From Nitrospira sp. (GTDB taxonomy: Bacteria; Nitrospirota; Nitrospiria; Nitrospirales; Nitrospiraceae), in the NCBI GenBank assembly GCA_030123565.1, contig CP126122.1, forward strand, positions 2,470,800 through 2,494,799: a DNA stretch of 24,000 bases. Direction: 5' to 3'. Shown in pieces: positions 10 to 17,887 of this stretch; position 1 is the stretch's first letter; each line of letters starts with the position of its first letter. The translations under genes were made by a program, and so were the position numbers. The notes below the pieces were generated by a model. That model was not told the origin of the DNA and made no database searches. It saw only the letters and a program-made list of their open reading frames with translations.

Positions 10-1719
10 ATGAACGACATCACCGACCGGCGACAGTTGGAAACCTTTCAAGCCGCACAACTGGCCGTCAGCCTGGCGCTCGATGACTCCCCTGCGCTCG
101 GTGATGCGCTGCCGAAAATTCTCCGCGCCTTATGCGAAGTCAACCGGTGGACGTTGGGGACGTTCTGGATGGTCAATCCCCAGGGAAAGGTACTCCAGTG
201 CGATACCCTCTGGCATCGACCGGATTTCCAGGCGGGAGAATTCATCCGGCAGTATCGTTCGCTTCAATTGAGCCCGGACATGGGACTGGCGGGACAGGCT
301 TGGAAAACGGGAGAGCCGGTTCTCCGTCCGGATATCCAACAGGATCCCGGCGTTCCCATGGCCCATGCCCTGAGCCGCCTCGGATTGCGAAGCGGCATCG
401 CCTTTCCGATCAGGAAAGGCAAAGTCATCATGGGCATCATGGAATTCCTCTCCTTGGACATCCTGCGGCCCAGCGCCGCCCAAGTCCACATGGTCGCCGA
501 ACTCGGTACGAGAGTCAGCCAATTCATTCAAGACAAGGATTTTGAACGGCAACTGCGTCAAGGGCAGAAGATGGAAGCCTTGGGACGAATGGCCGGAGGT
601 ATCGCACACGATTTCAACAACCTGCTGACCGTCATCAACAGCTGGAGCGAGATACTCCTGACGGAGTCCACGTTGGACCCTCGCACCAACCAGGGCCTGA
701 ATCAGATCAGGGAAGCGGGAAACAAGGCGGCGAGCCTCACCCGTCAACTCCTGGCCTTCAGCCGCCACCAACTGGTCAGACAACAGATTCTCAACCTGAA
801 CGACCGGGTCACGGACATCGTCGATCTGATGCGGCGGGTGATCGGAGAAGACATCAATCTCATCGTGACATTGGATCCCACCGTGGGACCGATTCACGCG
901 GACCCCGGTCAGATCGAGCAGGTGGTGATGAACCTGGTGGTGAATGCCCGCGATGCCATGCCGCAGGGCGGTCGTCTCGAGCTCGAGACCAGAGAACAGC
1001 AGATCACGCAATCCGACTCCTCGTGGCCCGATTCGATCAAGCCCGGCCCCTATGTGACCTTGGCCGTGCGCGATACAGGATGCGGCATGGATGCGGAGAC
1101 GCTGGCCCACGTCTTCGAGCCGTTTTTCACCACCAAGGATCGCGGCAAGGGTACCGGGCTGGGGCTTTCGACCGTCTATGGCATCGTCAAACAATCCGGA
1201 GGAACGATCGGGGTCGAAAGCGTACCGGGGCAAGGCACGACCTTTACGATCTATTTCCCGCGCACCGATGGACGGCAAGCCGCCCCCCTTCCATCCCCTC
1301 CCCAGCCGGATCGCCCGCAAGGGACGGAGACGATCTTGTTGGTCGAAGATGACGAGATGGTGCACAGCCTCGCTCACACCGTCTTAGCGGCCCAACAGTA
1401 CGCAGTCATGTCGGCGCGGAATGCTCAAGAGGCCCTGTCCATTGCGCGGACCCATGCCGGGCATATTGCACTCCTCGTGACCGATATGGTGATGCCGGGC
1501 ATGACCGGTTCCCAATTGGCCGTGCAGATGAAACAGTTACGGCCGGATATCAAGATCATCATGACGTCCGGTTATGCGGACCGGGGGAAGGAGTTTCTCG
1601 AATCCTTCGGACCGACCGCCGCCTTTTTGCAGAAACCCTATACTCCCGACTCACTCACGGGAAAGGTTCGGGAGATTCTCGACGCCCCTTCGCAACCATC
1701 TACGCCCGACCAGCCCTGA
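10..1719 (+). CDS. hybrid sensor histidine kinase (GAF - HisKA - HATPase_c - receiver)
   Basis: 569-aa ORF with H-box GGIAHDFNNLLTVI, N-box VVNARDAM, G1 DTGCGMD and G2 GTGLGLS. The C-terminal receiver reads LLVEDDE...LLVTDMVMPGMTG...FLQKPY. The N-terminal ~170 aa look like a GAF domain. Confidence 0.9.
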   Translation: MNDITDRRQLETFQAAQLAVSLALDDSPALGDALPKILRALCEVNRWTLGTFWMVNPQGKVLQCDTLWHRPDFQAGEFIRQYRSLQLSPDMGLAGQAWKTGEPVLRPDIQQDPGVPMAHALSRLGLRSGIAFPIRKGKVIMGIMEFLSLDILRPSAAQVHMVAELGTRVSQFIQDKDFERQLRQGQKMEALGRMAGGIAHDFNNLLTVINSWSEILLTESTLDPRTNQGLNQIREAGNKAASLTRQLLAFSRHQLVRQQILNLNDRVTDIVDLMRRVIGEDINLIVTLDPTVGPIHADPGQIEQVVMNLVVNARDAMPQGGRLELETREQQITQSDSSWPDSIKPGPYVTLAVRDTGCGMDAETLAHVFEPFFTTKDRGKGTGLGLSTVYGIVKQSGGTIGVESVPGQGTTFTIYFPRTDGRQAAPLPSPPQPDRPQGTETILLVEDDEMVHSLAHTVLAAQQYAVMSARNAQEALSIARTHAGHIALLVTDMVMPGMTGSQLAVQMKQLRPDIKIIMTSGYADRGKEFLESFGPTAAFLQKPYTPDSLTGKVREILDAPSQPSTPDQP

Positions 1720-1808: not shown

Positions 1809-1967
1809 TCAGCGTGTATCGCTCCCGACGGCGGTCGGAGCGGCATCTTCTTTGGTCGGAAGCGCCGGAACTGCGAGGACCGGTGTGGCTGAGGCGGGAT
1901 TCTGGGGAAAGGGGAGTTCCAGCAGCGCATAGGGATTCACCCGGGCGCCGTTCGCCTTCATTCCCCA
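1809..1967 (-). pseudogene. orphan 3' fragment (last ~52 codons) of the M23 peptidase gene found intact at 8607-9620
   Basis: Translation WGMKANGARVNPYALLELPFPQNPASATPVLAVPALPTKEDAAPTAVGSDTR matches the C-terminus of the 8607-9620 protein except for the penultimate residue. No upstream catalytic domain is present; the reading frame runs into the CRISPR flank. Confidence 0.85.
1817..1967. repeat. left copy of the 151-bp direct repeat bracketing the CRISPR-Cas island
   Basis: Manual alignment shows 150/151 identity to 8615-8765. The single mismatch is 1875 g versus 8673 a, which is synonymous in the peptidase frame. Confidence 0.9.
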
Positions 1968-2005
1968 AATGACGCAACCCGGCTCCCGTCCCCCATCATC
2001 GGAAC

Positions 2006-2706
2006 CTTTCACTCTAGCCTTTCCTCTGGGCGGGACTTACAATTGACTGCTCCACTTGTAGGCACGAGTGGATAAATGCTTTCACTCTAGCCTTTCCTCT
2101 GGGCGGGACTTACAATCGATATGCGGCGCGGCATTGTTGAGCAGGTACATGCTTTCACTCTAGCCTTTCCTCTGGGCGGGACTTACAATGCGGTTACGAT
2201 AGGCATAGTCAGACCCTCCTCTTATTCTTTCACTCTAGCCTTTCCTCTGGGCGGGACTTACAATCGAAGAGTCCGTACTGAGAAGAATGCAACTCTACAC
2301 TTTCACTCTAGCCTTTCCTCTGGGCGGGACTTACAATTGTTCCTGCTGGTTTCTCTCATGCCGATCATGGCACCTTTCACTCTAGCCTTTCCTCTGGGCG
2401 GGACTTACAATTCCAGACCCGCACCATGACGGTCGTCAATGCGACGCTCTTTCACTCTAGCCTTTCCTCTGGGCGGGACTTACAATCCGAAGGCCGTTGC
2501 CAATGGTGTAGACAAATTGATGGCTTTCACTCTAGCCTTTCCTCTGGGCGGGACTTACAATCGAGATTTAAAATTGCGGCGGGAGGCGCGCAACACTTTC
2601 ACTCTAGCCTTTCCTCTGGGCGGGACTTACAATGAAGGCCAGAAACAGAACGTGCTGGCACAACGGCACTTTCACTCTAGCCTTTCCTCTGGGCGGGACT
2701 TACAAT
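2006..2706 (+). CRISPR. CRISPR array: 10 identical 38-bp repeats CTTTCACTCTAGCCTTTCCTCTGGGCGGGACTTACAAT and 9 unique spacers of 34-37 bp
   Basis: Repeat starts are 2006, 2079, 2152, 2227, 2300, 2374, 2449, 2524, 2596 and 2669. Spacer lengths are 35, 35, 37, 35, 36, 37, 37, 34 and 35. The + orientation is inferred from the anti-repeat at 8224-8236 and from the TACAAT at each repeat's 3' end. Confidence 0.97.
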
Positions 2707-2869
2707 CCCGCCCAGAAGGCCATGGAAGAATTAAGGTTTGACAGCCCCAAGCAGGGTGTTTCTTCGAAAAGTTTCTACCTGCATGCCAAGTGCCTTGGTA
2801 TGAGAAGTTTTCGAGTTCGACCACCTCAAAACCGTACTGCTCACCAATCGTTTCCAGCTCGCCTTGATT

Positions 2870-3484
2870 TTAGAATACGTCTCCGCAGAAGTTTCGGTAT
2901 TCGCACTGGGTGCACCGTGCTCGGACCGGAGTTGGATTAGGAAATCGCTGCATCATCACGAGGATGCGCACTTGTTTCATACAGGAATGAACTTGCTCTT
3001 TGAGCAATTCATTCAGTTCAACCTCGACAAGCTCCTCATTGTCACTAAGCATCACGAATCCAACCGAGCAGGGCCGCAGAAAATGCTGCTCTGCAAGCAG
3101 ACCATAGGCACAAAGTTGTAACTTCCAGTTCTCGGCCAACTTGCTGCCGCTGGCCTTGAATTCAACGACACCTATCCTGTCTGGAGATTCAAGAATCAGA
3201 TCAACCTTACCGATCATCCCTAACGACTCAGCGAAGATTTCCAAGCCGAAATGTCGAATCGCCTCCTGGAAACCATATCGGCTCAGCATCCGTCTCGGCT
3301 CCAAACGCTCGAATCGCTCCTCCTGCTGGTGACCGCGCTGCATAAGAAAGGTCGCCGGCGGACGCACTGGCATAACCCAGTGGTAATAGACGATGCGCGG
3401 GCAGTACAGAAACTGCTTCAGATCATTCACGCTCAACACTGGTTCAGATACCTGGACTACCGATTGGTCTGCAGCCAACGTCAT
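2870..3484 (-). CDS. cas4: Cas4 (RecB-like exonuclease with a 4-Cys Fe-S cluster)
   Basis: 204 aa with an N-terminal Cys (FLYCPRIVYY) and the nuclease motif GKVDLILE...VVEFKAS. The C-terminal CTQCEYRNFC supplies the remaining three Cys. It lies 3 nt downstream of cas2. Confidence 0.9.
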   Translation of the reverse strand: MTLAADQSVVQVSEPVLSVNDLKQFLYCPRIVYYHWVMPVRPPATFLMQRGHQQEERFERLEPRRMLSRYGFQEAIRHFGLEIFAESLGMIGKVDLILESPDRIGVVEFKASGSKLAENWKLQLCAYGLLAEQHFLRPCSVGFVMLSDNEELVEVELNELLKEQVHSCMKQVRILVMMQRFPNPTPVRARCTQCEYRNFCGDVF

Positions 3485-3487
3485 GAT

Positions 3488-3829
3488 CTAGAACCTTTGA
3501 ATCGTCGGTTTGTCTGCCCCCGGCTCCGGCCAAGTCCTGCGCGTGTCTTGGTCGCCCTCTTCCTCAGACTGTTGTTGGAACACCAGCCGCTTGTCCAAGT
3601 CATCACTGCTGATCGGCTGAATTAATATTCTTCCCGTGGTTGAGCCGAGCAATTCTTTTAAACGCAAAAAGAGTTCTCGCCTTCGTGTCGCATCAAGACG
3701 TCCTGAGAATGCGCTAAATTGAAAACGCTCCAGGCCAAAGTCCAGGCACGCATCGCTGATACGCTGCCGAACTCGATCGTTCACAATATCGTAGACCACA
3801 AGACACAATGTGCTGACTTCACTGCTCAT
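3488..3829 (-). CDS. cas2: Cas2
   Basis: 113 aa starting LVVYDIVNDRVRQRISDACLDFGLERFQFSAFSG, a typical Cas2 ferredoxin-like N-terminus with the catalytic Asp. It lies 6 nt downstream of cas1. Confidence 0.9.
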   Translation of the reverse strand: MSSEVSTLCLVVYDIVNDRVRQRISDACLDFGLERFQFSAFSGRLDATRRRELFLRLKELLGSTTGRILIQPISSDDLDKRLVFQQQSEEEGDQDTRRTWPEPGADKPTIQRF

Positions 3830-3835
3830 AGCTTC

Positions 3836-5071
3836 TTACCACTTGAATCGGAACGGCACATATCGGGTCTGTCGGTCGGTAAGAAACGACGCCACCTGAC
3901 GCGCCTGCATCTGAATGATCGAGCGAACTTGATAATCCGCACCCTTCCACCGTTCACGACTTTCGAGCCGCCGCAGCAGCCGGTCAACCAGTATTGATCG
4001 AGTATCGGCATCAAGGCCTTTGTTCGATCCATTCGCCGGCAGTTGAAGTTGTCCCAGGCGCAAAGCGGCAATAATCGTCCTATCGACCACCGGCGCTCGG
4101 AATTCCTCTGTAAGATCAAGCACAAGACTCGGCTTGCCGGGCCGGTCGGTATGGAGATATCCGGCAAATGGTTCAAGACCTGCGTTCTGAATGGCACCCC
4201 ACACTTGGCTATAGAGGACTCCATATCCATAGTTAAGCAGCGAGTTTACGAAATCACCGGCGCCGCGGTGGGCGCGGTGGGTAAACTCAGCCTGCTTTTC
4301 AATCAGCTGTGAAATGCCTGTCCAATAGACCTTGGCCGCCTGACCTTCCAACCCCATGATCATGGAACGGGCTTTCTCCAAATCCGACCACGGCCCGCGC
4401 AGAATATCCCGTCGCGCACGGAGAATCAGCGAGACCTTCTCACGGATTACCCTAAACAGTTCCGGCTGAGTCAATCGAAGATTCTTGACGCAATATTTGA
4501 GGAGCCGAGCCTGATTGAGCAACTTACCCGAGGCAATCGCACAGGCCAACATCAGCCCTCGTCCATTTCCCAGTGCTTCAAGTTGCGCCCGCCGAATTTG
4601 TATGCTCGCAGTCAACATCGGCGACGCTATTTGAGCGACAGGCCGTCCGTCATAACCAACGATCGACACGCGAACACCACGATCTGCCAAAGCTGCGACC
4701 GCATCGACAGAGACAGAAAGCCCTGAGGATGCAAGTTGCAGCTCATGGATATGATCGAACGGAACCTGCCAGATGACTTTGCCGTCTTTTTTCTTCAAGA
4801 CCAGCCGTTCGCTCTTCTTCCCCACATACCCGCCGAATCCCGACAGACTGACCGTGAGCCCCTCGGGACTCTGCACAACCGCGAGGCCCTCTTCAAGCAC
4901 ATGCTCCTGAACACCGGGCGGGAAAAAATCGAGCATGAAGTTGGGTAACTCTTCCTCACCGGTGTAGAGATTAATTTGACGAGGAACGGGAGGAAGGAGT
5001 TCAAGAACAGGGGCAGGAGAAACAGGTGATTTGACTGGGCCTTGCGGATCAGGAAGCGGTTCCGGGGTCAT
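3836..5071 (-). CDS. cas1: Cas1 integrase with a ~65-70-aa Pro-rich N-terminal extension
   Basis: 411 aa with GLEGQAAKVYW, HRGAGDFVNSLLNYGYGVLY and LHTDRPGKPSLVLDLTEEFRAPVVD (the Cas1 E/H/D core). The ATG at 5071 is preceded by GGGGAG 8 nt upstream. It overlaps the cas9 3' end by 23 nt. Confidence 0.92.
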   Translation of the reverse strand: MTPEPLPDPQGPVKSPVSPAPVLELLPPVPRQINLYTGEEELPNFMLDFFPPGVQEHVLEEGLAVVQSPEGLTVSLSGFGGYVGKKSERLVLKKKDGKVIWQVPFDHIHELQLASSGLSVSVDAVAALADRGVRVSIVGYDGRPVAQIASPMLTASIQIRRAQLEALGNGRGLMLACAIASGKLLNQARLLKYCVKNLRLTQPELFRVIREKVSLILRARRDILRGPWSDLEKARSMIMGLEGQAAKVYWTGISQLIEKQAEFTHRAHRGAGDFVNSLLNYGYGVLYSQVWGAIQNAGLEPFAGYLHTDRPGKPSLVLDLTEEFRAPVVDRTIIAALRLGQLQLPANGSNKGLDADTRSILVDRLLRRLESRERWKGADYQVRSIIQMQARQVASFLTDRQTRYVPFRFKW

Positions 5072-8060
5072 ACTGTTTCTCCCCGTTGATTGTTTCGAAG
5101 TACTTTACTAGGGCGGCCTTACGTAGCTTGATCTCACGGCCTGCTTTAACAGATTCTTCCGTCTCAACTTGCCTTTTCAAGTTCAGACGCCGTGCTAGCG
5201 CATCGGGGATGGCCTGTTCTGGCAATAACCTAACCTCTGCCTCGTCAAACTCCTTGACTCTGTAATAGCCGGACTTGTGGCCAGCCCTTTCATCCAGCCA
5301 GACAAAGTGGTGCCGGGGCCACGTTCCGACGACTCTTGCACCATCGGGCATTGGTGGTTCAAATCGCGGGACACCAAAGGACTGGAATAGTGCCGGGTAC
5401 CGAATCGACCACTTGAGATCCTTGATTGACTCATTTTGTTTCGTCCAGAACACTATAGCCTCTGAAGCAGGCTTCAATTCGACTTTTCGTGGAGGGCCGC
5501 CTTTAGGCTCAACACGGGCAAATGTCCCACCTTTGTTCTTGCTAACCTTGACGTGCCTTATGCCTGGAAACTCAGTTGTCAAAACTTCAGACGGAAGCGA
5601 TTGTCCTTTCTTTATAGCGAGAGATTTGGCAACAGCCCTAAATCTTCTGTCCAATTCCTCTGAAGCCATACGACTCTCAGAGGGGTGGCGTCGCTCATCT
5701 GGTCCTTTGCCACTGTAAACGAAAGCGGCCAGCGGCTCGTAAAGTGTCTTCCGCTTCTCATCAAGCGCAGCAGGGTCTTGAGAAAATGTCAGATCGGCAA
5801 ATTTCCTTTTCCAACTAATGGGATATCGACCCAACACCTTCACCAGCGGCCAAGTACGCCGCTCCATATACTCAACCCAATCCGGAGCAATTTCTGGCAC
5901 GGCAAGTCCGTCCTGTTCAACGGGCTTTCCATCCCATCGAGGGCGGATCGCACGATACCGGAAGATTGTTTCGCGCCAAGTATGGGGAGGGCATGCAGCA
6001 ATGAGAGCCGCATCCTGGGCATGGTTGAACAGGTCGTTGTTGTTCTTGAGAGGAAAATTGTTTGTGCCGTCCGCCTTCTTAAGCCATGATTTCCGTAGCT
6101 GGGTCGTTGTGCGTCCATCTATTCGCTGGACAAAGGAAGATCCAGATTCGTAAGTCACCTTTGGCACAGCAACACCGCGTTTTTTGAACAGTTCCCCCAG
6201 AGCCACCACGAACTGTCGCGGCCGGGCCCCAACATGCGCCAGCGGAGTTGGATTCTCGGGATAATCAGCACCCTGAGAAAGAAGCAGCATGCGTTTCCGA
6301 TCAGAGATGCGAACAGTTTTCTTCTTCCCATCCTCGCCTTCTACTTGAACCCCTTGAGTGGTCAATACGTCGATTCGTTGAGCGAGCCTCATCCATCTAC
6401 CAGTATCAGATCCCAACCATTCGTATGGAGTTTGGTCGCCTTTCTCCGCGTTACACAATCTACATACGGGAACCAGGTTGTCCCACACATCCGGTCCACC
6501 ACGGGATTGTGGGAAAATATGATCCTTGTCTTCAGCCGGCCGTGGACTCGTCAAGTCGCAATAGAGACACGTGCCATCGGTTTCATGCTTGAGTCTCTCC
6601 ATGAACGGTTCAGGCTTTCGGAGTTTCTGTTCTCCCTTGCGGGCCTGTTCCGTTTGAGGCTTCGGCACTTCCAGAGTAATCAACTGGATAGGTCCATATC
6701 GCCAAGCTTCGTCTTCCCGTTTCTCTGGTTTGAACAGGATTTGTTCCAACCGGTGCAACACACGCTTATCGTGTTGTTCACGGCAGGGATTCGGAGCCTT
6801 CCGCACCTTCACTCGATGCCACTCACCGACCACATCCTTCATCGTCCTGCCCTGTGCTGCCTCTACGAGATGTTGACGACACAAGCTGGCTCTCCCATCA
6901 GGGGTCTCATTCCAGAGCAGATCAGAAATCTGGCGCGCCATCGATTCCTGAGCGCCTAGCTTTTTGAGGTAAGATTGAATGGCTTTGAGCTTCGGAACTG
7001 TCAGTGAAACACCCTTACGAGACCGTTTCTGTTGCAAATTACTATGTTGAGATTCACTGCTCTGTCCTCGGAGGTCCCACCACTTTCTGAACACGGAGAA
7101 CTCTTCTAGTTTCAAAGGCCTAACCACGCGGCCTTCTCGAACTCGGAGATTCCGAACTGCTGCTTCATAGGCAATCTCTCGCACCTTACTTTTCCGAGGA
7201 GTTGGTTTCCCGCACCATGCACAACCGCTCTTGAGTCGATTTTCGAAACGGGCGGGGCGCAAGATTTTGTTCAAGAGACGGCAGAGTTCTCGTTGCCAGC
7301 GCTGAATAGTGTCTTTCGAGAGATTGATTGAATTACCGAACCCATCGATAACTGAACACAAGTCAGCCGCTTTTACATCTCTGTGTTCAGCCTTGCGTGG
7401 TTCAGACTCCCGATGAAGCGCCTTCTCAAGCTCGCCAAGAAGGTCGTCCGGGGAAATCCTTTTCTTCCCGCGCACGGAATTGTCCGGGTCCTGTTGGCGG
7501 CGCTGAATCTCAGACCGAATTTGCGAAGCCAGACTATCTGGGACTCTGGATGAAAGTAGAAAATCTTTCAGCTTCACATCCGTCATATTTGCCAACTCAA
7601 TAGCGTCCCACTTATATCCTCGTTTCCGGAAGATAAGCGTGAGGGCTCGCACAAACCCTTTCGAATCCACCTTTCCTTGCTTCGCCAGATCAATCCAGGA
7701 AGGGGCATCGGCTGGGTTCTTGCCTGAAATTTGAAAGATGCCCGGTTGAACTTGAAAACGTGGATCTTTCAGCACCACGTAAGGATCTGGAAGTCTACTG
7801 TCGTTTGGCAGCTTTTGCCGCAACACCCATGAGCGTAGCCGGGCAAGACGCATCTTTTTCGCGTTACGAGTCCTTCGGCCACGACGAAGCTGCCGACGTT
7901 GCTCTAGATCTGAACCATGAAAGTCAACGTAGGTTTCCGCGTGGAGTATCTGATTGCCTTGCACAACCGAAATACCACCGGCTGATTCGCCGAAATCAAT
8001 TCCTACACGAACGGTGGGCAGGAAGGAGTTGATTCGCTCTAGAAGCCTGGGCGTCAGCAA
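5049..8060 (-). CDS. cas9: Cas9 (compact, ~1,003 aa if translated from TTG 8060; the longest ORF extends to GTG 8168)
   Basis: RuvC-I VRVGIDFGESAGG, Arg-rich bridge helix RRQLRRGRRTRNAKKMRLARLRSW, RuvC-II LITLEVPK. HNH is DKDHIFPQSRGGPDVWDNLVPVCRLCNAEKG and RuvC-III is NHAQDAALIAA. The start is uncertain: the upstream 36 codons overlap an intrinsic terminator. Confidence 0.9.
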   Translation of the reverse strand: MLTPRLLERINSFLPTVRVGIDFGESAGGISVVQGNQILHAETYVDFHGSDLEQRRQLRRGRRTRNAKKMRLARLRSWVLRQKLPNDSRLPDPYVVLKDPRFQVQPGIFQISGKNPADAPSWIDLAKQGKVDSKGFVRALTLIFRKRGYKWDAIELANMTDVKLKDFLLSSRVPDSLASQIRSEIQRRQQDPDNSVRGKKRISPDDLLGELEKALHRESEPRKAEHRDVKAADLCSVIDGFGNSINLSKDTIQRWQRELCRLLNKILRPARFENRLKSGCAWCGKPTPRKSKVREIAYEAAVRNLRVREGRVVRPLKLEEFSVFRKWWDLRGQSSESQHSNLQQKRSRKGVSLTVPKLKAIQSYLKKLGAQESMARQISDLLWNETPDGRASLCRQHLVEAAQGRTMKDVVGEWHRVKVRKAPNPCREQHDKRVLHRLEQILFKPEKREDEAWRYGPIQLITLEVPKPQTEQARKGEQKLRKPEPFMERLKHETDGTCLYCDLTSPRPAEDKDHIFPQSRGGPDVWDNLVPVCRLCNAEKGDQTPYEWLGSDTGRWMRLAQRIDVLTTQGVQVEGEDGKKKTVRISDRKRMLLLSQGADYPENPTPLAHVGARPRQFVVALGELFKKRGVAVPKVTYESGSSFVQRIDGRTTTQLRKSWLKKADGTNNFPLKNNNDLFNHAQDAALIAACPPHTWRETIFRYRAIRPRWDGKPVEQDGLAVPEIAPDWVEYMERRTWPLVKVLGRYPISWKRKFADLTFSQDPAALDEKRKTLYEPLAAFVYSGKGPDERRHPSESRMASEELDRRFRAVAKSLAIKKGQSLPSEVLTTEFPGIRHVKVSKNKGGTFARVEPKGGPPRKVELKPASEAIVFWTKQNESIKDLKWSIRYPALFQSFGVPRFEPPMPDGARVVGTWPRHHFVWLDERAGHKSGYYRVKEFDEAEVRLLPEQAIPDALARRLNLKRQVETEESVKAGREIKLRKAALVKYFETINGEKQYDPGTAS

Positions 8061-8082
8061 AATGGCACCAGGGGGTGAGGAT

Positions 8083-8120
8083 AAAAAAGGTGGCGCTCCT
8101 CGCTCGTCGAGTGCGCCACC
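8083..8120 (-). terminator. intrinsic terminator (predicted tracrRNA 3' end)
   Basis: Minus strand reads GGTGGCGC-a-CTCG-acgag-CGAG-ga-GCGCCACC followed by TTTTTT (8088-8083). Confidence 0.65.
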
Positions 8121-8236
8121 AACCCTTGCCCTTCCGGGGTCCGAGTACCGGTCTTCGGGGCCACCCACACCCTGGTTCCGATGCTGGGTTACATCGGCGA
8201 GGACTGGAGTAGCGCCTGGGCTTCTTTCACTCTAGC
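8083..8236 (-). ncRNA. tracrRNA: predicted tracrRNA (~154 nt)
   Basis: The 5' end GCUAGAGUGAAAG (8236-8224) is the exact reverse complement of repeat nt 1-13. It is followed by AAG..., a CCGAUG/CAUCGG hairpin (8197-8178) and the terminator at 8120-8083. A promoter sits at the right distance upstream. Confidence 0.55.
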
Positions 8237-8243
8237 AATGATG

Positions 8244-8272
8244 GTTATACCTCGCACGATTTCCCTATTCAA
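8244..8272 (-). promoter_or_regulatory. sigma70-like promoter for the predicted tracrRNA
   Basis: Minus strand TTGAAT (8272-8267), 17 nt, then TATAAC (8249-8244). The anti-repeat begins 7 nt downstream of the -10 element. Confidence 0.5.
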
Positions 8273-8606
8273 GCCTTATCACCTAGGGAAGACCTAATAA
8301 TAGCTCCATCTGCCGAAATCCCTTGAGCAGGTCTTTGACTGAAGTGATGTTACGTTCCAGAATTTGTAATAGGTTCGATCTGAGCGGGCGACCCCCGGCT
8401 TCACTGAAGGCATAGGGGCTCTCGTAACTTTACGAGGAAAACAAGAGGGACCTACCTGAATCTGCGAGGAAATTCCAAATGAATTCCGCCCAGCAAGACC
8501 CGAAATGGTCGCACCGAACCGTGAAAGGCGGATGACTGCTCAGGTGCTGATTTCGTTCTGAACTTTTTTGGACACAACAGTTCGAGAGGGCTTGACGATG
8601 GTCTGA

Positions 8607-9620
8607 TTACCGGCTATCGCTCCCGACGGCGGTCGGAGCGGCATCTTCTTTGGTCGGAAGCGCCGGAACTGCAAGGACCGGTGTGGCTGAGGCGGGATTC
8701 TGGGGAAAGGGGAGTTCCAGCAGCGCATAGGGATTCACCCGGGCGCCGTTCGCCTTCATTCCCCAGTGGAGATGGGGGCCGGTGGCGCGGCCTGTGGCAC
8801 CGACCTTGCCGATGACCTGGCCGGCCTTGATCAAGTCGCCCTCCTTGACCAGCACGTCTGAGAGGTGGAAATACATCGAGTAGAGGCCGAGGCCATGGTC
8901 CAGATAGACGCCCCTGCCGGAAAAGATATGGTCCACGGTGAGGCGGACGACCCCGTCGTTGCTGGCCATGACGGCCGTGCCGAGCGGCGCGCCGATATCT
9001 TCGCCGTTGTGGGGATTCCTGGCCTGGCCGTTCATGATGCGGACGCTGCCGAAGATGCCGGTGCGTTTTCCATGGACCGGTTCGATGAACCCCGCCTGCC
9101 ACAACCGCATGGCGGATTCTTCGGCCAAGGCCTTACGGACCTGCTCCTGCTCGGCCTTCCAGCGCGCCGCTGCCTTCTCATCGAGATCGACCTTGTCTTT
9201 CGGCAAGGTGAGATGTTCGACGGCGAATTTCTCCTTCGCCACGAAGACCTGATAGGTGAAGTGCCGCATCTGCTCGCCCAGTTGCGCATCGATCGTCAAT
9301 TCATGCGTGCCCGGCTCATCCTGCAGGTCGATCCCCAGCAACCCGATATACCCGGCTTCGCCGGCGGAAGGGTTCGGAAACAACGTGACGGTACGACCAA
9401 GGAATCGGCCCTTCACGGTGGTGGCGTCCCTGAGGTTCGGCACCGTGATGACGAGGACCTGCCCCTGTTTCCCGCTGAACCGTCCGTCGGCGCCTCGCTG
9501 CGTGGGTGCCGAGTTGGGGAACAGCTCGACCGGAAACACGCTGGCCAGCAGGACGATGGAAATGATAAAGAGGCGATCCAGCGACGACATGGTCTTGTCC
9601 AGCCCCGCAGCCCGTTTCAT
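8607..9620 (-). CDS. secreted M23/LytM-family peptidoglycan endopeptidase (catalytic motifs intact)
   Basis: 337 aa with a hydrophobic N-terminal signal-like segment, HNGEDIG (HxxxD) and GPHLHWG (HxH). Its ATG overlaps the pafA stop as ATGA (9617-9620). An alternative start lies at 9590. Confidence 0.88.
   Translation of the reverse strand: MKRAAGLDKTMSSLDRLFIISIVLLASVFPVELFPNSAPTQRGADGRFSGKQGQVLVITVPNLRDATTVKGRFLGRTVTLFPNPSAGEAGYIGLLGIDLQDEPGTHELTIDAQLGEQMRHFTYQVFVAKEKFAVEHLTLPKDKVDLDEKAAARWKAEQEQVRKALAEESAMRLWQAGFIEPVHGKRTGIFGSVRIMNGQARNPHNGEDIGAPLGTAVMASNDGVVRLTVDHIFSGRGVYLDHGLGLYSMYFHLSDVLVKEGDLIKAGQVIGKVGATGRATGPHLHWGMKANGARVNPYALLELPFPQNPASATPVLAVPALPTKEDAAPTAVGSDSR
8615..8765. repeat. 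right copy of the 151-bp direct repeat (it forms the 3' end of the intact M23 peptidase gene)
   Basis: 150/151 identity to 1817-1967. Confidence 0.9.
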
Positions 9621-10993
9621 CGATAAAATCGGACGCCGGAAACCTGTGCCAACAATTCTTCGACCCGCCGGTTCACTGCGCTGAACGGATCCATACAGAG
9701 GATCGTCTCTTCCCAGTACCCGTTCAACTTCAGATAGGTCCAGTCTACCGTATAGGAGCGGTTCTTGGCACGCGCAAATCGAATGAAGTCGCCGCGGACC
9801 TTTGCGCGGGTGGTCTGGGGCGGCACCGACATGGCCCGTTGCACGGCTTCTTCCTCCACCACCCGAACGGCCATCCCCCGATTCTCCATCAAATAATACA
9901 GTCCGCGGGTGCGTTTCACGTCATGAAATTGCAAATCCAACAGGAAGACCCTGGGATCATCCCAGCCGCAGTCTTTCTTGTCGATGTACGATTGGATGAG
10001 GTGCTTCTTCATCACCCAATCGACCTCGTGCACCAATTGCATCGGGTCCTCTTCGAGACGATCCAGTACCCAGACCCACTTGGTCAGGACGTCGTCCAGG
10101 ATCGGATCATGGTCCTGCGCCGCCAGAAATTCTTTCGCGCGCTTGACGTAGACCCGCTGGATTTCGATGGCGGTCATCTGCCGACCGTCGTCCAACTTTA
10201 CTTTTTTATTGAGTGTGGGGTCGCGGGAAATCTCGCGGATGGCCTTGACGGGATCTTCGAGTTCCATACCGGTGACGGAAAAACCTGCTTCGGCCATCGA
10301 GAGCACCAGGGTCGCGGTCCCGACCTTCAGATAGGTGGCATACTCCGACATGTTCGAGTCGCCCACGATGATGTGGAGCCGCCGGTATTTCTCCGCGTCC
10401 GCATGGGGTTCATCGCGGGTATTGATGATGCTCCGTGACGACGTAGTGGAGGACGAGGTCTTTTCATGGATATGTTGGGCGCGCTGCGAGATGAAGTATT
10501 GCGGCTTGCCCGAGACCTTCAACACCTTGCCGGCGCCGGAGTAGATTTGTCGCGTCACGAAAAACGGAATGAGCTGCTCGGTGACTTTCCAGAAATCGAC
10601 GTCCCGGCGCATGAGGTAGTTCTCATGGCAACCGTAGGTATTGCCGAGCGAGTCGGTGTTGTTCTTGAAAATATAGATTTCACCGGACAGGCCTTCTTCC
10701 CGCAGGCGCTCTTCGGCCGCCGGCAAACAGGCCTCCAGCAATCGCTCACCGGCCTTGTCGTGCACGACCAGATCGAGGATGTTGTCGCATTCCGGCGTGG
10801 AATACTCGGGGTGGCAGCCGGTGTCCTGGTAGAATCGCGCCCCGTTGACCAGGAATGCGTTGGACGGCCAACTGTTGGGAATCAGCCCCTCGAAGATATA
10901 GCCCAACACCTTCTCCATCGGGAGATAGATCTTCCCGTTCGGGGAGAAGATCAGGCCATATTCGTTTTCCAGGCCGAAAATTCGCTGTTGCAT
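9617..10993 (-). CDS. pafA: Pup/UBact-protein ligase PafA homolog
   Basis: MQQRIFGLENEYG start, HPEYSTPE, NTYGCHENYL and RDEPHADAEKYRRLHIIVGDSNM. It lacks the Dop-specific loop and lies downstream of prcA as in canonical clusters. The start at 10993 has GGAG 9 nt upstream; the ORF extends to 11053. Confidence 0.82.
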   Translation of the reverse strand: MQQRIFGLENEYGLIFSPNGKIYLPMEKVLGYIFEGLIPNSWPSNAFLVNGARFYQDTGCHPEYSTPECDNILDLVVHDKAGERLLEACLPAAEERLREEGLSGEIYIFKNNTDSLGNTYGCHENYLMRRDVDFWKVTEQLIPFFVTRQIYSGAGKVLKVSGKPQYFISQRAQHIHEKTSSSTTSSRSIINTRDEPHADAEKYRRLHIIVGDSNMSEYATYLKVGTATLVLSMAEAGFSVTGMELEDPVKAIREISRDPTLNKKVKLDDGRQMTAIEIQRVYVKRAKEFLAAQDHDPILDDVLTKWVWVLDRLEEDPMQLVHEVDWVMKKHLIQSYIDKKDCGWDDPRVFLLDLQFHDVKRTRGLYYLMENRGMAVRVVEEEAVQRAMSVPPQTTRAKVRGDFIRFARAKNRSYTVDWTYLKLNGYWEETILCMDPFSAVNRRVEELLAQVSGVRFYR

Positions 10994-11024
10994 GGGTCTG
11001 CGCTCCATCACGACCGTCTGTATC

Positions 11025-11053
11025 AGAATACACCGTGACAGGCGAGGCTTCAA
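11025..11053 (-). promoter_or_regulatory. possible internal promoter for pafA and the M23 peptidase gene
   Basis: Minus strand TTGAAG (11053-11048), 17 nt, then TATTCT (11030-11025), in the 170-nt prcA-pafA gap. Confidence 0.35.
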
Positions 11054-11163
11054 CCGACGGCGTGATTGCGTCCGGAACAGAGAGGGAAAGGGGAGGCGCC
11101 GCTACAACCATATTCCGGTTGCAGCGAATCCCATCGGTGACGTAGCTCGTTCGAGAAGAGGGA

Positions 11164-11847
11164 CTAGGCGAAGAGTTGTGCGATATCGGTGCCGCTCAAC
11201 CGTCTGAACTTCCGCCCGAGGCGGCTCCTGTCCAACACGGCCGCTTCGAGATTTTCGGAGGGAATTTTTTGATTCGCGACCTGCTCCAGGGCGGCAAGGC
11301 ACCGTCTGAGACCGTCCTTGAGTGTCGGAGGCTGCGCCGTGGCATGTTCCCGCAGGTATTGCTGCACGGCTTCCGATCGCCCGCCGATGACCGCAAAACT
11401 CTTCTCATCGACGATGCTCCCGTCGAACGAGATGCGATAGATCTCATTCGCCTGGCCCTGGGCCCCGACCTGCACCACGAGGATTTCCACTTCCAGCGGT
11501 TTGACATCCTGGCTGAACGCCGTCCCCAAACTCTGCGAATAGGCGTTGGACAGGGTACGGGCGCTCACGTCTTCACGGCTGTACATGTAGCCGGTCAGGT
11601 CGGCATGGCGGATGCCCGCCTTCCTGAGGTGCTCGAACTCGCTGTACTTGCCGGCCCCGGCAAAGGCGATGCGGTCGTACACTTCGGAGACTTTGTGCAA
11701 CGACGAGCTGGGGTTGTCGGCCGCCAGCAGAATACCGTCGACATACTCCAGGGCAATAATCGAGCGTCCCTTGGCGATGCCCTTCTTGGCATACTCCGCC
11801 TTGTCCTGCATCATTTGCTCGGGCGAGACGTAGTAGGGCAACGGCAT
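11164..11847 (-). CDS. prcA: 20S proteasome alpha subunit
   Basis: 227 aa starting MPLPYYVSPEQMMQDKAEYAKKGIAKGRS, with the Ntn-hydrolase proteasome fold pattern. It lies 3 nt downstream of prcB. Confidence 0.9.
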   Translation of the reverse strand: MPLPYYVSPEQMMQDKAEYAKKGIAKGRSIIALEYVDGILLAADNPSSSLHKVSEVYDRIAFAGAGKYSEFEHLRKAGIRHADLTGYMYSREDVSARTLSNAYSQSLGTAFSQDVKPLEVEILVVQVGAQGQANEIYRISFDGSIVDEKSFAVIGGRSEAVQQYLREHATAQPPTLKDGLRRCLAALEQVANQKIPSENLEAAVLDRSRLGRKFRRLSGTDIAQLFA

Positions 11848-11850
11848 CGA

Positions 11851-12675
11851 CTAGGATCTCCTTCGCTCCGCGATCATGGTTTCGTACAGGGCCCGGACCC
11901 GCTCTTCCGGCACATCGACAAGGCCGATGTTGCTGACGATCTTCGCCGTCGGATAGATGCCGCGAACCAGATCGGGTCCCCCGGTTCCCACATCCTCATC
12001 GGCCGCGTTGTACAACGCCAACAGCCCGACCCGGAGCGCCTCCTCTTCCGAAAGCCCCGGCCGGTAATGTTCGCGCATGGTGTTGCGGGCGTCCTTGCCG
12101 CCGGACCCGATGGAGTGGTGATCCGATTCTTCGTAGCGGCCGCCCGTGATGTCGTACTTGAAAATACGGCCTTCCTTCCGCTTCAGATCGTACCCGACAT
12201 AGAGCGGCATGACGACCAGTCCCTGGAACACCATGGGCAGATTGGCCTTCACCATCTGCCCCAGCTTGTTGGCCTTGCCTTCGCAGGAGAGTTGCACTCC
12301 CTCCAGCTTCTCATAATGTTCGAGCTCGGTCTGAAACAGCTTGGCCATCTCGATGCAGGGTCCGGCAGCCCCGGCGATCGCCATGGCGGAATACTCGTCG
12401 ATGCGAAACACCTTCTCGATACGACGGTCGGCGATTTGAAAACCTTCCGTGGCCCGGCGGTCTCCCGCAATGATCGCTCCATCGCGATACTTCAGCGCCA
12501 ACACCGTCGTCCCCTGCGGCACCGGGATGGTTCCGATGCGGCTCACATCCTGGGACAAGGACAGGGGCCGAGCGGCGATCTCGTTCGAGCAGGGCGTCAA
12601 CTCCGGATAGTGGCGTGTGAGGAAGTCGAAGAAACTGGACCCCTCGTGATGTGGAAGGAATGGACCCTGTTTCAT
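11851..12675 (-). CDS. prcB: 20S proteasome beta subunit (with ~56-aa propeptide)
   Basis: 274 aa. The propeptide ends ...PVPQG and is followed by TTVLALKYRDGAIIAGDRRAT (catalytic Thr1). Confidence 0.9.
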   Translation of the reverse strand: MKQGPFLPHHEGSSFFDFLTRHYPELTPCSNEIAARPLSLSQDVSRIGTIPVPQGTTVLALKYRDGAIIAGDRRATEGFQIADRRIEKVFRIDEYSAMAIAGAAGPCIEMAKLFQTELEHYEKLEGVQLSCEGKANKLGQMVKANLPMVFQGLVVMPLYVGYDLKRKEGRIFKYDITGGRYEESDHHSIGSGGKDARNTMREHYRPGLSEEEALRVGLLALYNAADEDVGTGGPDLVRGIYPTAKIVSNIGLVDVPEERVRALYETMIAERRRS

Positions 12676-12688
12676 GTGAACGTCGTGG

Positions 12689-14188
12689 TTAGGTCGAAAG
12701 TTTTGCGAGCAGCGCGGCGGCGGTCTCCGCTTGAGCCAGGAGTTCCCCTGTCAGAGATTCGGTCCCGCGCAGGGGTTCCATCAAGGGAATCCGCTTGATC
12801 TTGTTCTGCCCGATATCGAACAACACGGACGTCCAACTTGCCCCGTAGACGGCGCTCGGGTACTTCTTGACACACTGGCCCCGGAAATAGGCCCGCGTTC
12901 CGACCGGCGGAGTGAACTCCGCCCTCGCGATCTCATGGTCCAGCACCACGCGCTCGATCATATGGCTGCGTTCCAGCGTATAGTACAGCCCTCGGTCGGG
13001 GCGGACGTCGTGATATTGGAGGTCCATCAAACGGACGCGCGAATCGTCCCAGCCGCAGGATTTACGCTCCATATAGGATTCGATCAAATACCGTTTGGCC
13101 ACCCAGTCCAATTCCCGCACCAACGACCGCGGGTCCCGTTCCAACCGGTCGAGCACATCCTCCCAGCGCACCAACACGTCTTTCGTGACCTGGCTGAGTT
13201 CATGGCAGGCATAAAAATCCTGGGCGGCCTTGAGGTAGGCACGCTGCACCGCGATCGCGGTCGTGGCGGTTCCATCGGCCAACTTGAGGGATTCCTTGAG
13301 CTGCACATCCCGGGATACCTGCTTGATTGCGCCGACCGGATCCGCCAGGCTGATCCGGGGCAGGTCCGCTCCGGCTTCAAGCAAGTCCAACACCATCGAC
13401 AAGGCGCCCACCTTGAGGTAGGTCGAGAGTTCCGCCATGTTGGCATCGCCGACGATCACATGGAGCCGACGATATTTCCCCGAGTCGGAATGCGGCTCAT
13501 CGCGCGTGTTGATGATCGGCCGCCTGACCATGGTGTTGAGATCGACGAGGGTTTCGAAGAAGTCGGCCCGCTGCGAAATCTGGTACTCGACGGGGTTGGT
13601 CTGATTCTCCGCCCCCACCTTGCCCGATCCGGCATAAATGAGCCGCGTGACGAGGAAGGGAGTGAGCACCTGCGTGATCCGCTCGAACGACACCGCGCGC
13701 GACACCAGGTAGTTCTCGTGGTATCCGTAGCTGTTCCCCTTGCCGTCTGAATTGTTTTTGTACAGGACGAACTGCTCGCGGCCACGCGCCTTGGTGATGC
13801 CTTCCAACGCCTGCGCAATGATGCGCTCGCCGACCCGTTCAAACGCCACCACTTCCCTGGCATTGGTACATTCCGGAGTCGAATACTCGGGGTGGGCACC
13901 ATCGACATAGAGCCGGCCACCGTTGGCCAGTACCTTGTTGAGCTGCCGATTGTAATCGGGTCCCGGCCGTTCCCGTTCTCCGTCCACCTCGAACCCGCGC
14001 GCGTCCAGCAAGGGATTTTCGTTTTCGTAATCCCATACCGCGTGGGGCGCCGGCAGGTTCGGATAGTACCCGATCAGATGGATTGAATTGGCGACCGGAT
14101 CCGCTGCGTTGGGATCGCGACTGGCGATACCGAATTCCGTCTCCGTGCCGAGGACACGGGACAGGTTGTGCGAATGAGATTCTTTCAT
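12689..14188 (-). CDS. dop: depupylase/deamidase Dop homolog
   Basis: 499 aa with LGTETEFG, AHPEYSTPE, NSYGYHENYL and RDEPHSDSGKYRRLHVIVGDANM. It carries an extra loop (DARGFEVDGERERPGPDYNRQLNK) that is absent from the pafA paralog. It lies directly downstream of mpa. Confidence 0.82.
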   Translation of the reverse strand: MKESHSHNLSRVLGTETEFGIASRDPNAADPVANSIHLIGYYPNLPAPHAVWDYENENPLLDARGFEVDGERERPGPDYNRQLNKVLANGGRLYVDGAHPEYSTPECTNAREVVAFERVGERIIAQALEGITKARGREQFVLYKNNSDGKGNSYGYHENYLVSRAVSFERITQVLTPFLVTRLIYAGSGKVGAENQTNPVEYQISQRADFFETLVDLNTMVRRPIINTRDEPHSDSGKYRRLHVIVGDANMAELSTYLKVGALSMVLDLLEAGADLPRISLADPVGAIKQVSRDVQLKESLKLADGTATTAIAVQRAYLKAAQDFYACHELSQVTKDVLVRWEDVLDRLERDPRSLVRELDWVAKRYLIESYMERKSCGWDDSRVRLMDLQYHDVRPDRGLYYTLERSHMIERVVLDHEIARAEFTPPVGTRAYFRGQCVKKYPSAVYGASWTSVLFDIGQNKIKRIPLMEPLRGTESLTGELLAQAETAAALLAKLST

Positions 14189-16130: not shown

Positions 16131-16754
16131 TCACGAGACCTCGATCGCAGAAACGAGTGCTTCGGTCGCCTGCTCCACGTTCGACGCACTCAAAATCGAC
16201 GACATCACCGCGATGCCGAACCCGCCCGCTTGCCGCACCTCGCGCGCACGTGCGGCGGTGATTCCACCGATTGCAAAGATCGGCACCCGAATCTGTCGCG
16301 CCGCCTCTTCCAGTACCCGCAGCCCGAGCGGCGGTCCGTATTCTCGCTTCGACGGCGTGTCGTAGATCGGACCCAGCACTACAAAATCAGCCCCCTGCCG
16401 TTCCGCGACCACCGCGCCATCGATGGAGTGAACGGACCGTCCGAGCAATTGCCGTGGCCGCAGCATGCTTCGCACCACCGATGTCGGCAAGCTGCTCTCG
16501 CGCAAATGCACTCCCTCGGACGGCAGCGCCAACGCCAGATCGACACGGTCGTTGATGAACAATTCGACCTTCGGTATCTCCTGTCGAAAGTCCATCGCCA
16601 GAGCGAGCAATTGGCGGGCCGTCAGATCACGTTCACGCAGCTGCACGGCACGCACACCGGCGCGGACGGCGCGACCGACCACCGACAAGAGCGGACGCCC
16701 GGCGGTCTGATGACGATCAGTGACCAAGTACAGACGGAAATCGACGGAAGGCAT
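16131..16754 (-). CDS. thiE: thiamine-phosphate synthase
   Basis: 207 aa with LYLVTD, VQLRERD and PIFAIGGI motifs. It lies downstream of thiG. Confidence 0.9.
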   Translation of the reverse strand: MPSVDFRLYLVTDRHQTAGRPLLSVVGRAVRAGVRAVQLRERDLTARQLLALAMDFRQEIPKVELFINDRVDLALALPSEGVHLRESSLPTSVVRSMLRPRQLLGRSVHSIDGAVVAERQGADFVVLGPIYDTPSKREYGPPLGLRVLEEAARQIRVPIFAIGGITAARAREVRQAGGFGIAVMSSILSASNVEQATEALVSAIEVS

Positions 16755-16777
16755 CAGGGGAAAGAACTCAAAACTTC

Positions 16778-17557
16778 TTAGAGCATTCCCTCGATGGGGC
16801 TGCTGGCCGTGGCGTAGAGTTTACGAGGTATACGACCGGCTTTGTAGGCCAGGCGGCCGGCCCAGATGGCGTATTTCATGGCCTCAGCCATTGCAAGAGG
16901 GTCCTGCGCACCGGCGATGGCGGTGTTCATGAGCACCGCATCCGCACCGTATTCCATCGCCAGTGCGGCATCGGAAGCAGTCCCGACGCCGGCGTCCACG
17001 ATGATCGGCACCTTGACGGTTTCCATGATGATCTTGAGGTTGTAGGGGTTCCGGATCCCAAGACCGGACCCGATGGGAGCGGCCAAGGGCATGACGGCGG
17101 GACAACCGATATCCACCAGTTTCTTGGCGACGATCGGGTCGTCGTTCGTATAGGGCAGGACGATGAATCCTTCTTTGATGAGGATCTTCGCCGCTTCGAT
17201 CAATCCGGCCGTGTCGGGGAACAGGGTCTTTTCGTCGCCCAGCACTTCCAGCTTCACCAAATCGGACACACCGGCCGCCCGCGCCAACCGGGCATAACGC
17301 ACGGCGTCTTCCACCGTGTAACAGCCGGCTGTATTCGGCAGGATGATGTATTTTTTCGGATCGAGATAGTCCAGGAGGTTTTCCTTGGAGCGATCCGTGA
17401 TATTCACGCGACGCACCGCGACCGTCACGACATCCGCACCGGACGCATCGATCGCCTTTTTGGTCTCCACGAAGTTCTTATATTTGCCCGTGCCGACCCA
17501 CAGACGCGACTTGAATTCCCGGCCGGCAATCACCAAACGATCGTTGATCGTATCCAT
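16778..17557 (-). CDS. thiG: thiazole synthase
   Basis: 259 aa with [19 protein letters not shown] and [13 protein letters not shown] motifs. Confidence 0.95.
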
Positions 17558-17560
17558 AGG

Positions 17561-17767
17561 TTACTCCGCTCCACCGCCGATGAAGCTCAATATTTCCACC
17601 CGGTCCCCCTCACGGAGGCTGCGGGTCTCGAAATCGTTCCGATCCACTATTTCCAGATTGAGTTCGACTGCGACCCGATCGGCTCGAATGTCCAGGTCGC
17701 GCAGCAAGGTTGCCACCGTCTGCCCCTCGCCGACCCCGCGTGATTCGCCATTGACCTGGATCGTCAC
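17561..17767 (-). CDS. thiS: sulfur-carrier protein ThiS (GTG start), ending GGGAE
   Basis: 68 aa: MTIQVNGE...TVATLL...VAVELNLEIV...LREGDRVEILSFIGGG plus two extra residues, AE. Confidence 0.88.
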   Translation of the reverse strand: MTIQVNGESRGVGEGQTVATLLRDLDIRADRVAVELNLEIVDRNDFETRSLREGDRVEILSFIGGGAE

Positions 17768-17791
17768 CCCACACCTCTGTTTCGTCCGGTC

Positions 17792-17821: not shown

Positions 17822-17887
17822 CCAAGCCCTCCTGGGCTTGCCGTCGGCCCATTGCCCGCACAATAATGCGGCCCTACCACCGATACT

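Follow-up and report, generated by a model that had tools for sequence, protein, structure and literature searches.

Insertion of a type II-D (Cas9d) CRISPR-Cas locus between duplicated ends of a peptidase gene in Nitrospira: a possible product of host recombination between alleles of one species

The window analysed in this work (24,000 nucleotides, viz. positions 2,470,800 to 2,494,799 of contig CP126122.1, forward strand) comes from a metagenome-derived 4.6-Mb Nitrospira contig (L001; JGI 3300045419; NCBI protein WHZ15642.1), and it contains a complete CRISPR-Cas locus of type II-D, whose effector is Cas9d, lying between two 151-nt direct copies of the 3' end of a gene for an M23 peptidase. 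This island (positions 1968-8614; 6,647 bp) is lacking in other contigs of the same species, in which the sequence now seen on both of its sides is present once. In some Nitrospira, a chromosomal Cas9d locus occupies a variable slot between the Pup-proteasome/M23-peptidase gene cluster and a convergent kinase gene, and its arrangement in the window looks like the outcome of a one-off recombination accident of the host machinery rather than of a self-mobile element. The explanation which we favour, although only tentatively, is that host recombination set the island, via a circularised fragment, into an allele of this species that had been free of it, i.e. by Campbell-type insertion-duplication. 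The features on which this interpretation depends are the following.

10-1719, plus strand: 3' part of a gene for a hybrid histidine kinase/response regulator, forming the left flank (Pfam GAF, HisKA, HATPase_c and Response_reg; oriented convergently to the peptidase gene; full length 813 aa in the source contig)
1779-1801, no strand: 8-bp inverted repeat (hairpin, from folding) in the native peptidase-kinase intergenic region, part of the empty-site allele
1809-1967, minus strand: orphaned 3' piece of the M23 peptidase gene; it has 52 codons and a TGA stop, ends in ...GSDTR* and includes the left repeat copy (1817-1967)
1968-2005, minus strand: novel joint, in which (in the cas orientation) the last CRISPR repeat is followed by 35 nt of spacer-like sequence, by ATT (the three initial nucleotides of the repeat) and then by TGGGG of the peptidase W codon
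8615-8765, minus strand: right 151-bp repeat copy, within the intact peptidase gene, with a private single-nucleotide polymorphism (SNP) at 8673
8607-9620, minus strand: intact M23 peptidase gene, 337 aa, ending ...GSDSR*, the final gene of the Pup-proteasome cluster (Pfam Peptidase_M23, 6.4e-29)

The two copies of the duplicated segment were compared by means of a repeat search, pairwise alignment and translation. Over their 151 nt they differ at a sole position (g at 1875, a at 8673), and this difference is synonymous, with an in-frame stop codon at the same position in both copies. The right copy, which completes the intact peptidase gene, encodes the ending ...GSDSR*, and the left copy, which is an orphan, encodes ...GSDTR*; the last two codons differ and all other residues are identical. 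As to the single synonymous mismatch, the intact right and orphan left copies and the SR versus TR endings, the alignment and the translation agree with an earlier sequence-only reading of this DNA. A weaker similarity runs for 15 nt further (1802-1816 versus 8600-8614), and the repeat search reports the pair as 1802-1967 and 8600-8765. The identity ends on one side at 8614|8615, where the alleles terminating in ...SR* and ...TR* diverge, and on the other side at 1967|1968, where the CRISPR array joins the peptidase sequence. That the segment belongs to a dispersed repeat family was considered and, for the window and the related loci that were covered, rejected, as there are two copies in the window and one in each of about 70 matching Nitrospira loci, where it is always the 3' end of the peptidase gene. 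As a consequence of the insertion, the peptidase would have remained intact and its penultimate residue would have changed from T to S.

If the locus is a discrete insertion, as the sequence-only reading proposed, then related genomes should show the peptidase gene, the hairpin and the kinase gene around a single copy of the 151-bp segment. A peptidase-based scan, limited to one genome per species, gave 80 Nitrospira loci. In approximately 18 of these the same convergent kinase gene adjoins the peptidase gene within 70-240 bp (mostly 70-100 bp) and there are no cas genes, and a second copy of the peptidase 3' end was found in none of the scanned loci. The peptidases that are 98% identical to that of the window all end in ...TR*, and their contigs represent the empty site. 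These same-species contigs (viz. L092-L103 and L119, the latter being Logan SRR26671187) show the predicted order, with the peptidase gene (...TR*), the hairpin, the kinase gene and one 151-bp copy. In megablast comparisons with L092, window positions 16763-8615 correspond to L092 positions 2851-11006 and window positions 1967-1 to L092 positions 10856-12813, so that a single segment (10856-11006 in L092; 5389-5539 in L119) aligns to both copies in the window. The homology breaks exactly at 8615 and 1967, and hence 1968-8614 is a clean insertion accompanied by a duplication.

The sequence identity of L092 and L100 to the window is 97.5% at the nucleotide level, whereas for L119, the closest relative, the values are 98.9% (peptidase side) and 99.8% (kinase side). 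The single copy in L119 is the same as the left copy of the window at 151 of 151 positions. Four SNPs relative to L092 are common to both copies in the window, and the difference at 8673 is private to the right copy. As both copies carry SNPs of this lineage, both of them are the allele of this lineage, and the homology derives from the same species and not from a foreign attachment (att) site. The mismatches to L119 are unevenly distributed, with 7 in 3,361 bp on the left (0.2%) versus 57 in 5,539 bp on the right (1.0%), and the switch occurs at the island; the other closest relatives of the right flank are also about 1.1% divergent. This fivefold difference between 1-1967 and 8615-14150, with the lower divergence on the kinase side, suggests that a tract of recent gene flow terminates at the heterology. 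However, it is only suggestive in regard to the mechanism of insertion, as later gene flow stopping at the heterology fits equally well. Look-ups of ThiG and PrcA, made for a baseline for the L119 strain, returned only the source contig or short contigs ending before the peptidase gene.

The nearest relative of the Cas9 protein (P0004; 75% identity) is encoded on a 168-kb Nitrospira contig, L082, whose flanks are approximately 88-91% identical to those of the window at the nucleotide level and which represents a sister species. The order in L082 is peptidase, cas9d, cas1, cas2, cas4, four identical repeats and kinase. Its island is present at the same site and has the same peptidase-side boundary, but it lacks an orphan fragment, the hairpin and a direct repeat. 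The peptidase of L082 ends in ...NDSR* and is followed by TAAGCAGCCATCGTCAG, which is homologous to the SR* of the right copy in the window followed by TAATCAGACCATCGTCAAG. Similarly, the tail of the window island, AGCCGGTAA plus TCAGACCATCGTCAAG, is homologous to AGCCGATAA plus GCAGCCATCGTCAG of L082; the first of these, AGCCGGTAA, closes the outer end of the island and supplies the last two codons (SR) and the stop codon of the peptidase. Both the ...SR* and the ...TR* endings are natural in Nitrospira peptidases. On the array side of L082, 11 nt follow the last repeat, and then the kinase flank commences at the equivalent of window position 1764. Compared with L082, the window has 241 extra bases (1765-2005), which consist of 38 nt beside the array and 203 nt that belong purely to the empty-site allele. 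Neither mismatches nor L082-like sites, which might mark a donor tract beside the island, are in excess within 8615-12700. The island proteins are far more diverged between the window and L082 (identities of 75% for Cas9, 85% for Cas1, 76% for Cas2 and 75% for Cas4) than the adjoining host proteins (99.6% for PafA and 93.6% for the peptidase). Within Cas9d, identity to the L082 protein is about 87% over the first 700 residues, and in the last 300 (window 5049-5785) it falls to 30-60% with insertions and deletions, where the DNA barely aligns. This C-terminal region looks like one that has been replaced or is fast-evolving, and it is possibly the part that reads the protospacer-adjacent motif (PAM).

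At the array-side end of the island, when read in the orientation of the cas genes, the sequence continues from the last perfect repeat into GTTCCGATGATGGGGGACGGGAGCCGGGTTGCGTC (35 nt, which is within the size range of the spacers), then into ATT, and then directly into TGGGGAATGAAGG of the peptidase gene; the CRISPR repeat itself begins with ATTGTAAG. The simplest reading of this sequence is that the array was broken 3 nt into a further repeat. The terminal 35-mer, taken as a putative spacer, has no exact match in viral contigs. The presumed parental sequences, GCGTCATT|GTAAG and CTCCAC|TGGGG, overlap by 0-1 nt at the joint, i.e. there is no microhomology. A joint at arbitrary positions of the gene and of the array, with 0-1 nt of microhomology, fits the ligation of the ends of a fragment.

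The composition of the interior confirms what the sequence-only reading had noted as AT-richness. The GC content of 1968-8614 is 52.4%, versus 60.0% and 59.9% in the flanks, and the GC content at third codon positions is 0.51-0.60 for the cas genes versus 0.72-0.80 for the host genes. The island interior is thus compositionally foreign. All of its ORFs either are cas genes or lack a Pfam match, and the statement that a complete CRISPR-Cas9 system is the only cargo is supported, with the effector now assigned to type II-D. The island also lacks mobility functions, as had been stated. Pfam searches of the island open reading frames (ORFs) detected no integrase or transposase domain in any of them; there is no inverted repeat of at least 20 nt in the window, no integrase within about 10 kb of the island, where the neighbours are housekeeping genes, and no tRNA or tmRNA target or known RNA family was found in the window at the island ends. 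An origin as a transposon, casposon or CRISPR-associated transposon was rejected, as inverted repeats, transposase and PolB are lacking, the duplication is 151 bp long, and Cas1 is part of a normal cas1-cas2-cas4 module.

The further suggestion that the island is a mobilisable cassette is not borne out by its relatives. The other Cas9d islands (relatives P0035, P0003, P0010, P0012 and P0016, with 69-76% Cas9 identity) are all in unrelated contexts, and flanking direct repeats were found at none of them. Their DNA homology to the window starts only at about 8236/8260, within the anti-repeat, and extends inwards from there, whereas the outer 350 bp (8237-8614), inclusive of the substitute gene end, are common to L082 alone. 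Searches of plasmid, phage and viral-contig (IMG/VR) collections gave no related DNA; with the Cas9d protein as query, plasmids gave matches to the HNH motif only, and IMG/VR gave none. A Cas9d that is at least 90% identical was found on the source contig only. In a metagenome scan for Cas9, 15 loci were recovered and none of these was beside a peptidase gene, but the collection that was scanned missed the source contig as well as L082 and is hence incomplete.

Every model of how this structure was formed requires that two alleles of the same species met, viz. one with the island (...SR*) and one without it (...TR*, with the hairpin), and that one illegitimate joint was made. In the explanation that we favour, the source of a linear double-stranded fragment would have been a strain of this species that had the island. 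The fragment would begin 158 nt before the stop codon of the peptidase gene and span the donor gene end (...SR*, TAA), the tracrRNA (trans-activating CRISPR RNA) region, cas9d-cas1-cas2-cas4 and the array, as far as the break 3 nt into a repeat. Ligation of its ends into a circle would make the blunt joint 1967|1968, and the circle would then enter the chromosome via one RecA-type crossover in the 151 bp, its only homology to the recipient. The expected product is the peptidase gene with the donor ...SR* ending, the island, the displaced 151 bp of the recipient with ...TR* and the hairpin, and the kinase gene, which is the order that is seen. As would be anticipated for a Campbell-type event, a segment that is single-copy in the empty allele is duplicated around heterologous DNA, and the edges of the duplication appear to be the end of donor-recipient homology on one side and the novel joint on the other. 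Events of this kind are known from Escherichia coli, where after transfer of linear DNA homologous at one end, 56 of 60 Lac- recombinants arose via resection, recircularisation and a single crossover (Amarir-Bouhram et al. 2011, PMC3240628), and in the 14 recombinants that were sequenced the homologous segment was duplicated over 109-950 bp (PMC3240628). The window is similar to these in that heterologous DNA is bracketed by a duplicated homologous segment of a length (151 bp) within that range, in that no recombinase of an element is needed, and in having one novel joint at arbitrary positions with the target gene left intact. It differs from them in being a natural event in an uncultured nitrifier, with a whole CRISPR-Cas locus as cargo, and in that the circle and the entry of DNA would have to be postulated here. 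Several considerations weigh against the circle. No genome of this species was found that has the island but not the duplication, a homology of 151 bp is short if a single crossover is to be efficient, and a route by which double-stranded DNA would enter Nitrospira has to be assumed. Further, simple insertion of a circle does not predict the asymmetry of the flanks relative to L119 (0.2% versus 1.0% divergence), whereas import of linear DNA with one homologous end does predict it, and the final structure alone is indistinguishable from that expected of the illegitimate-recombination variant.

That variant, homology-facilitated illegitimate recombination (HFIR) between the island-bearing and island-free alleles, is a close competitor, which we consider somewhat unlikely and yet deserving of serious weight. 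In this case an island-bearing ancestor with a layout like that of L082 would take up island-free DNA of the same species; the kinase side would recombine homologously and the opposite fragment end, lying 158 nt inside the peptidase gene, would be joined illegitimately to the array with deletion of the terminal repeats, so that the structure would represent a failed deletion of the island. In a mirror version, the island and the peptidase flank would be imported into an island-free cell, giving the same product. The simple layout that this requires does exist in L082, the array seems truncated at the joint (the 35-nt spacer plus ATT), and island-free alleles are a far commoner source of DNA, with 31 contigs for one empty-site peptidase sequence (P0122) as an example. 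The switch in divergence from L119 at the island is also in accordance with flanks having different recent histories, but it is likewise explicable by later gene flow halting at the heterology. The joints made by HFIR typically show 3-8 nt of microhomology, whereas the overlap here is 0-1 nt. In the E. coli experiments, the duplications came from recircularisation and single crossover, and true HFIR accounted for only 4 of 60 recombinants and is expected to delete rather than to duplicate (PMC3240628). On the other side, HFIR has been invoked for the orphan 3' ends in Rhs and type VI secretion system (T6SS) loci (PMC5361080). The orphan 3' ends of Rhs, contact-dependent inhibition (CDI) and T6SS loci resemble the window in that a new 3' end with its cargo adjoins a gene body that is conserved, the former 3' end is displaced downstream as an orphan, and the residual homologous overlap can recombine later; they differ from it in that the window has no microhomology at the joint, its displaced piece is without evident function, and it records a single event and not an array of orphans (PMC5361080). 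The sequence-only reading had proposed either an att-like site-specific integration or a Campbell-type crossover over the 151 bp; the latter is one of the two best explanations, and the former is not supported, in view of an L082 island without the repeat, the lack of a recombinase and the broken-array end.

The site-specific model, in which an integrase acting in trans would insert a mobilisable island at an att site in the peptidase 3' end, with an element-borne gene end restoring the gene, is accordingly improbable. It shares with integrase-borne islands and prophages at the 3' ends of genes or tRNAs the classic footprint of direct repeats, a gene end restored by codons of the element (...SR*), a displaced native end and foreign composition, and the slot is a variable hotspot with other cargo in other Nitrospira. 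However, it is opposed by the lack of an integrase from the island and from about 10 kb around it, by the sister species having no left repeat, by an array-side end resembling a broken array, by the lineage-specific SNPs in both repeats, and by the lack of plasmid, phage or viral relatives; in addition, neither ends nor repeats are shared with the related Cas9d islands elsewhere, and the other cassettes in this slot begin past the stop codon and have no repeats. Slightly less probable again is an ancient duplication, predating the split between the window and L082 and kept uniform by gene conversion, of which L082 would have lost the orphan and the empty sites would be the result of pop-out. 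This would account for an island with identical location and peptidase-side boundary in two species that differ by about 10%, and pop-out would regenerate the observed empty allele with ...TR* and the hairpin. However, the repeats would have to stay 99.3% identical while the species diverged by about 10%, the orphan copy with its flank matches the functional L119 locus at 99.8-100%, the genus as a rule has empty sites with this layout, and in L082 the array runs straight into the kinase flank without any remnant of an orphan. The least probable of the alternatives to which we assign a value is that co-existing island-bearing and island-free haplotypes were chained into one path during assembly; the source is a metagenome-derived contig and the island arrangement is seen in one assembly only, but the sequences joined at 1967|1968 share no k-mer, which makes a graph mis-join unlikely, the copies differ by a SNP, and the flanks are internally consistent. 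Of a different nature is the idea, which we hold to be doubtful, that the island is a recombinase-free "pop-out / pop-in" defence module, in which a RecA crossover between the repeats would release a 6.8-kb circle (the island plus one copy of the peptidase end) that could re-enter any island-free cell of the same species by a crossover at those 151 bp. If this is correct, then the Cas9d locus could spread and be lost within a Nitrospira population by host homologous recombination alone. A more remote variant is that the Cas1-Cas2-Cas4 integrase made the break or the joint, which sits no more than 3 nt from a spacer-repeat boundary.

Recombination products of the kind seen in this footprint are known, and the value of the finding is that of a well-resolved natural example. 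It provides a clean natural case of presence and absence of a CRISPR-Cas locus in one species, with filled and empty alleles at 99-99.8% identity and no machinery of a mobile element, and it indicates that in the annotation of defence islands the presence of flanking repeats need not imply carriage by an integrase. The 151-bp repeats also predict instability of the Cas9d locus in this strain, as loss of the island by recombination between them would restore the common empty allele and would release a circle able to re-enter island-free cells. These results do not change the current understanding of CRISPR biology or of recombination.

The constituents of the island, all of which are in the orientation of the minus strand, are as follows.

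2006-2706, minus strand: CRISPR array of 10 identical 38-nt repeats (ATTGTAAGTCCCGCCCAGAGGAAAGGCTAGAGTGAAAG in the cas orientation) with 9 spacers (34-37 nt); L082 has an identical repeat
2870-3484, minus strand: cas4 (Pfam Cas_Cas4, 5.8e-16; PADLOC Cas4_II, 1.5e-46)
3488-3829, minus strand: cas2 (Pfam CRISPR_Cas2, 1e-13)
3836-5071, minus strand: cas1, 411 aa (Pfam Cas_Cas1, 1.3e-63 over residues 77-343; PADLOC Cas1_II, 1.4e-71)
5049-8060, minus strand: cas9d, the type II-D effector, 1003 aa according to the JGI call (NCBIfam NF049971 CRISPR_Cas9d; HNH, RRXRR)
8070-8300, minus strand: candidate tracrRNA region (anti-repeat at about 8223-8297; conserved DNA)
8301-8614, minus strand: non-coding outer end of the island, common to L082 only, with short ORFs of 27-62 aa, none of them recombinase-like

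The locus is a complete system of type II-D, which is a known subtype, and the system itself is unremarkable. The effector matches the NF049971 model with E = 4.7e-179 and 598 bits (cut-off 375) over residues 54-998, and its nuclease signatures were assigned at the level of domains rather than of single catalytic residues, with Pfam HNH, HNH_4 and HNH_5 at residues 534-582 and RRXRR at residues 50-111. It is similar to the described type II-D systems (PMC9755519, PMC12339737, PMC11903963) in passing the Cas9d model, in its compact size of about 1,000 aa, and in having an adjacent array and a predicted tracrRNA. However, few Cas9d loci carry adaptation genes (PMC9755519), and the locus in the window differs from most of them in having the full adaptation set of cas1, cas2 and cas4. 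It thus adds a full Cas9d system from canonical Nitrospira, and its diverged C-terminal region may be of interest for mining of PAM diversity among Cas9d proteins. Cas1 has an N-terminal extension of about 75 aa, which matches no family and is also present in the related islands (410-411 aa), the Cas1 domain starting from residue 77.

The start of cas9d at 8060 is given by the JGI gene call and by the alignment to the model, and the first start codon of the ORF is at 8168. The intervening upstream extension of the frame (8061-8168; 108 nt) is conserved at the nucleotide level across the islands, and it more likely belongs to the tracrRNA than to the coding sequence. The segment 8223-8297 is a good candidate for the tracrRNA anti-repeat; it has a 13-nt perfect complement to the CTTTCACTCTAGC end of the repeat, and the extended duplex has a predicted energy of -36.1 kcal/mol (RNAduplex). 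The DNA of the candidate tracrRNA is 80-87% conserved among the Cas9d islands in unrelated contexts, and no Rfam family matches it. The predicted pairing with the CTTTCACTCTAGC end implies that the CRISPR RNA would be read from the plus strand, i.e. from the side of the orphan fragment toward cas4 and convergent with the cas genes. At the array edge near cas4 (2696-2724), the flank and the start of the repeat form an 11-bp perfect hairpin, TCTGGGCGGGA-TTGTAAG-TCCCGCCCAGA, which is conserved at L082 positions 15222-15250.

In the intergenic region between the kinase gene and the orphan fragment, the sequence-only reading had seen what might be a convergent terminator hairpin. The 8-bp stem at 1779-1801 is real and is part of the empty-site allele, being present in L119 and L100, partly deleted in L092 (where 7 nt are gone) and absent from L082. 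However, its identification as a terminator is not supported, as the folding energy of -12.7 kcal/mol corresponds to z = -0.08 versus shuffled sequence and a T-tract is absent. A nearby patch of 22 nt at 1743-1764 (TCCCTATCGCATCGTCCGACCG) does not differ between the window, L119 and L082, and the version of it in L092 and L100 has five mismatches and a 2-nt gap. Within the species, polymorphism is high in this short stretch between the genes. The L082-like state of this patch was considered as a possible recombination scar and rejected, as the empty-site contig L119 has the same patch and it is thus ordinary allelic variation.

The slot between the peptidase and kinase genes is also variable in other Nitrospira. 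In L012, L015, L018 and L027 it holds a different cassette consisting of 3-4 co-oriented ORFs (of about 153, 165, 342 and 500 aa), which begins after the stop codon of the peptidase gene and has no repeats; its coordinates are 11332-14875 in L018 and 12232-15296 in L027. This cassette gave no Pfam, NCBIfam or PADLOC match in these four contigs, and the slot appears to be a hotspot of variable cargo with a possible role in defence. In L027, the kinase gene was not found within 10 kb downstream of the peptidase gene, and the region downstream of the slot cassette (16491-17961) encodes a group II intron reverse transcriptase/maturase (RVT_1 and GIIM, in two ORFs).

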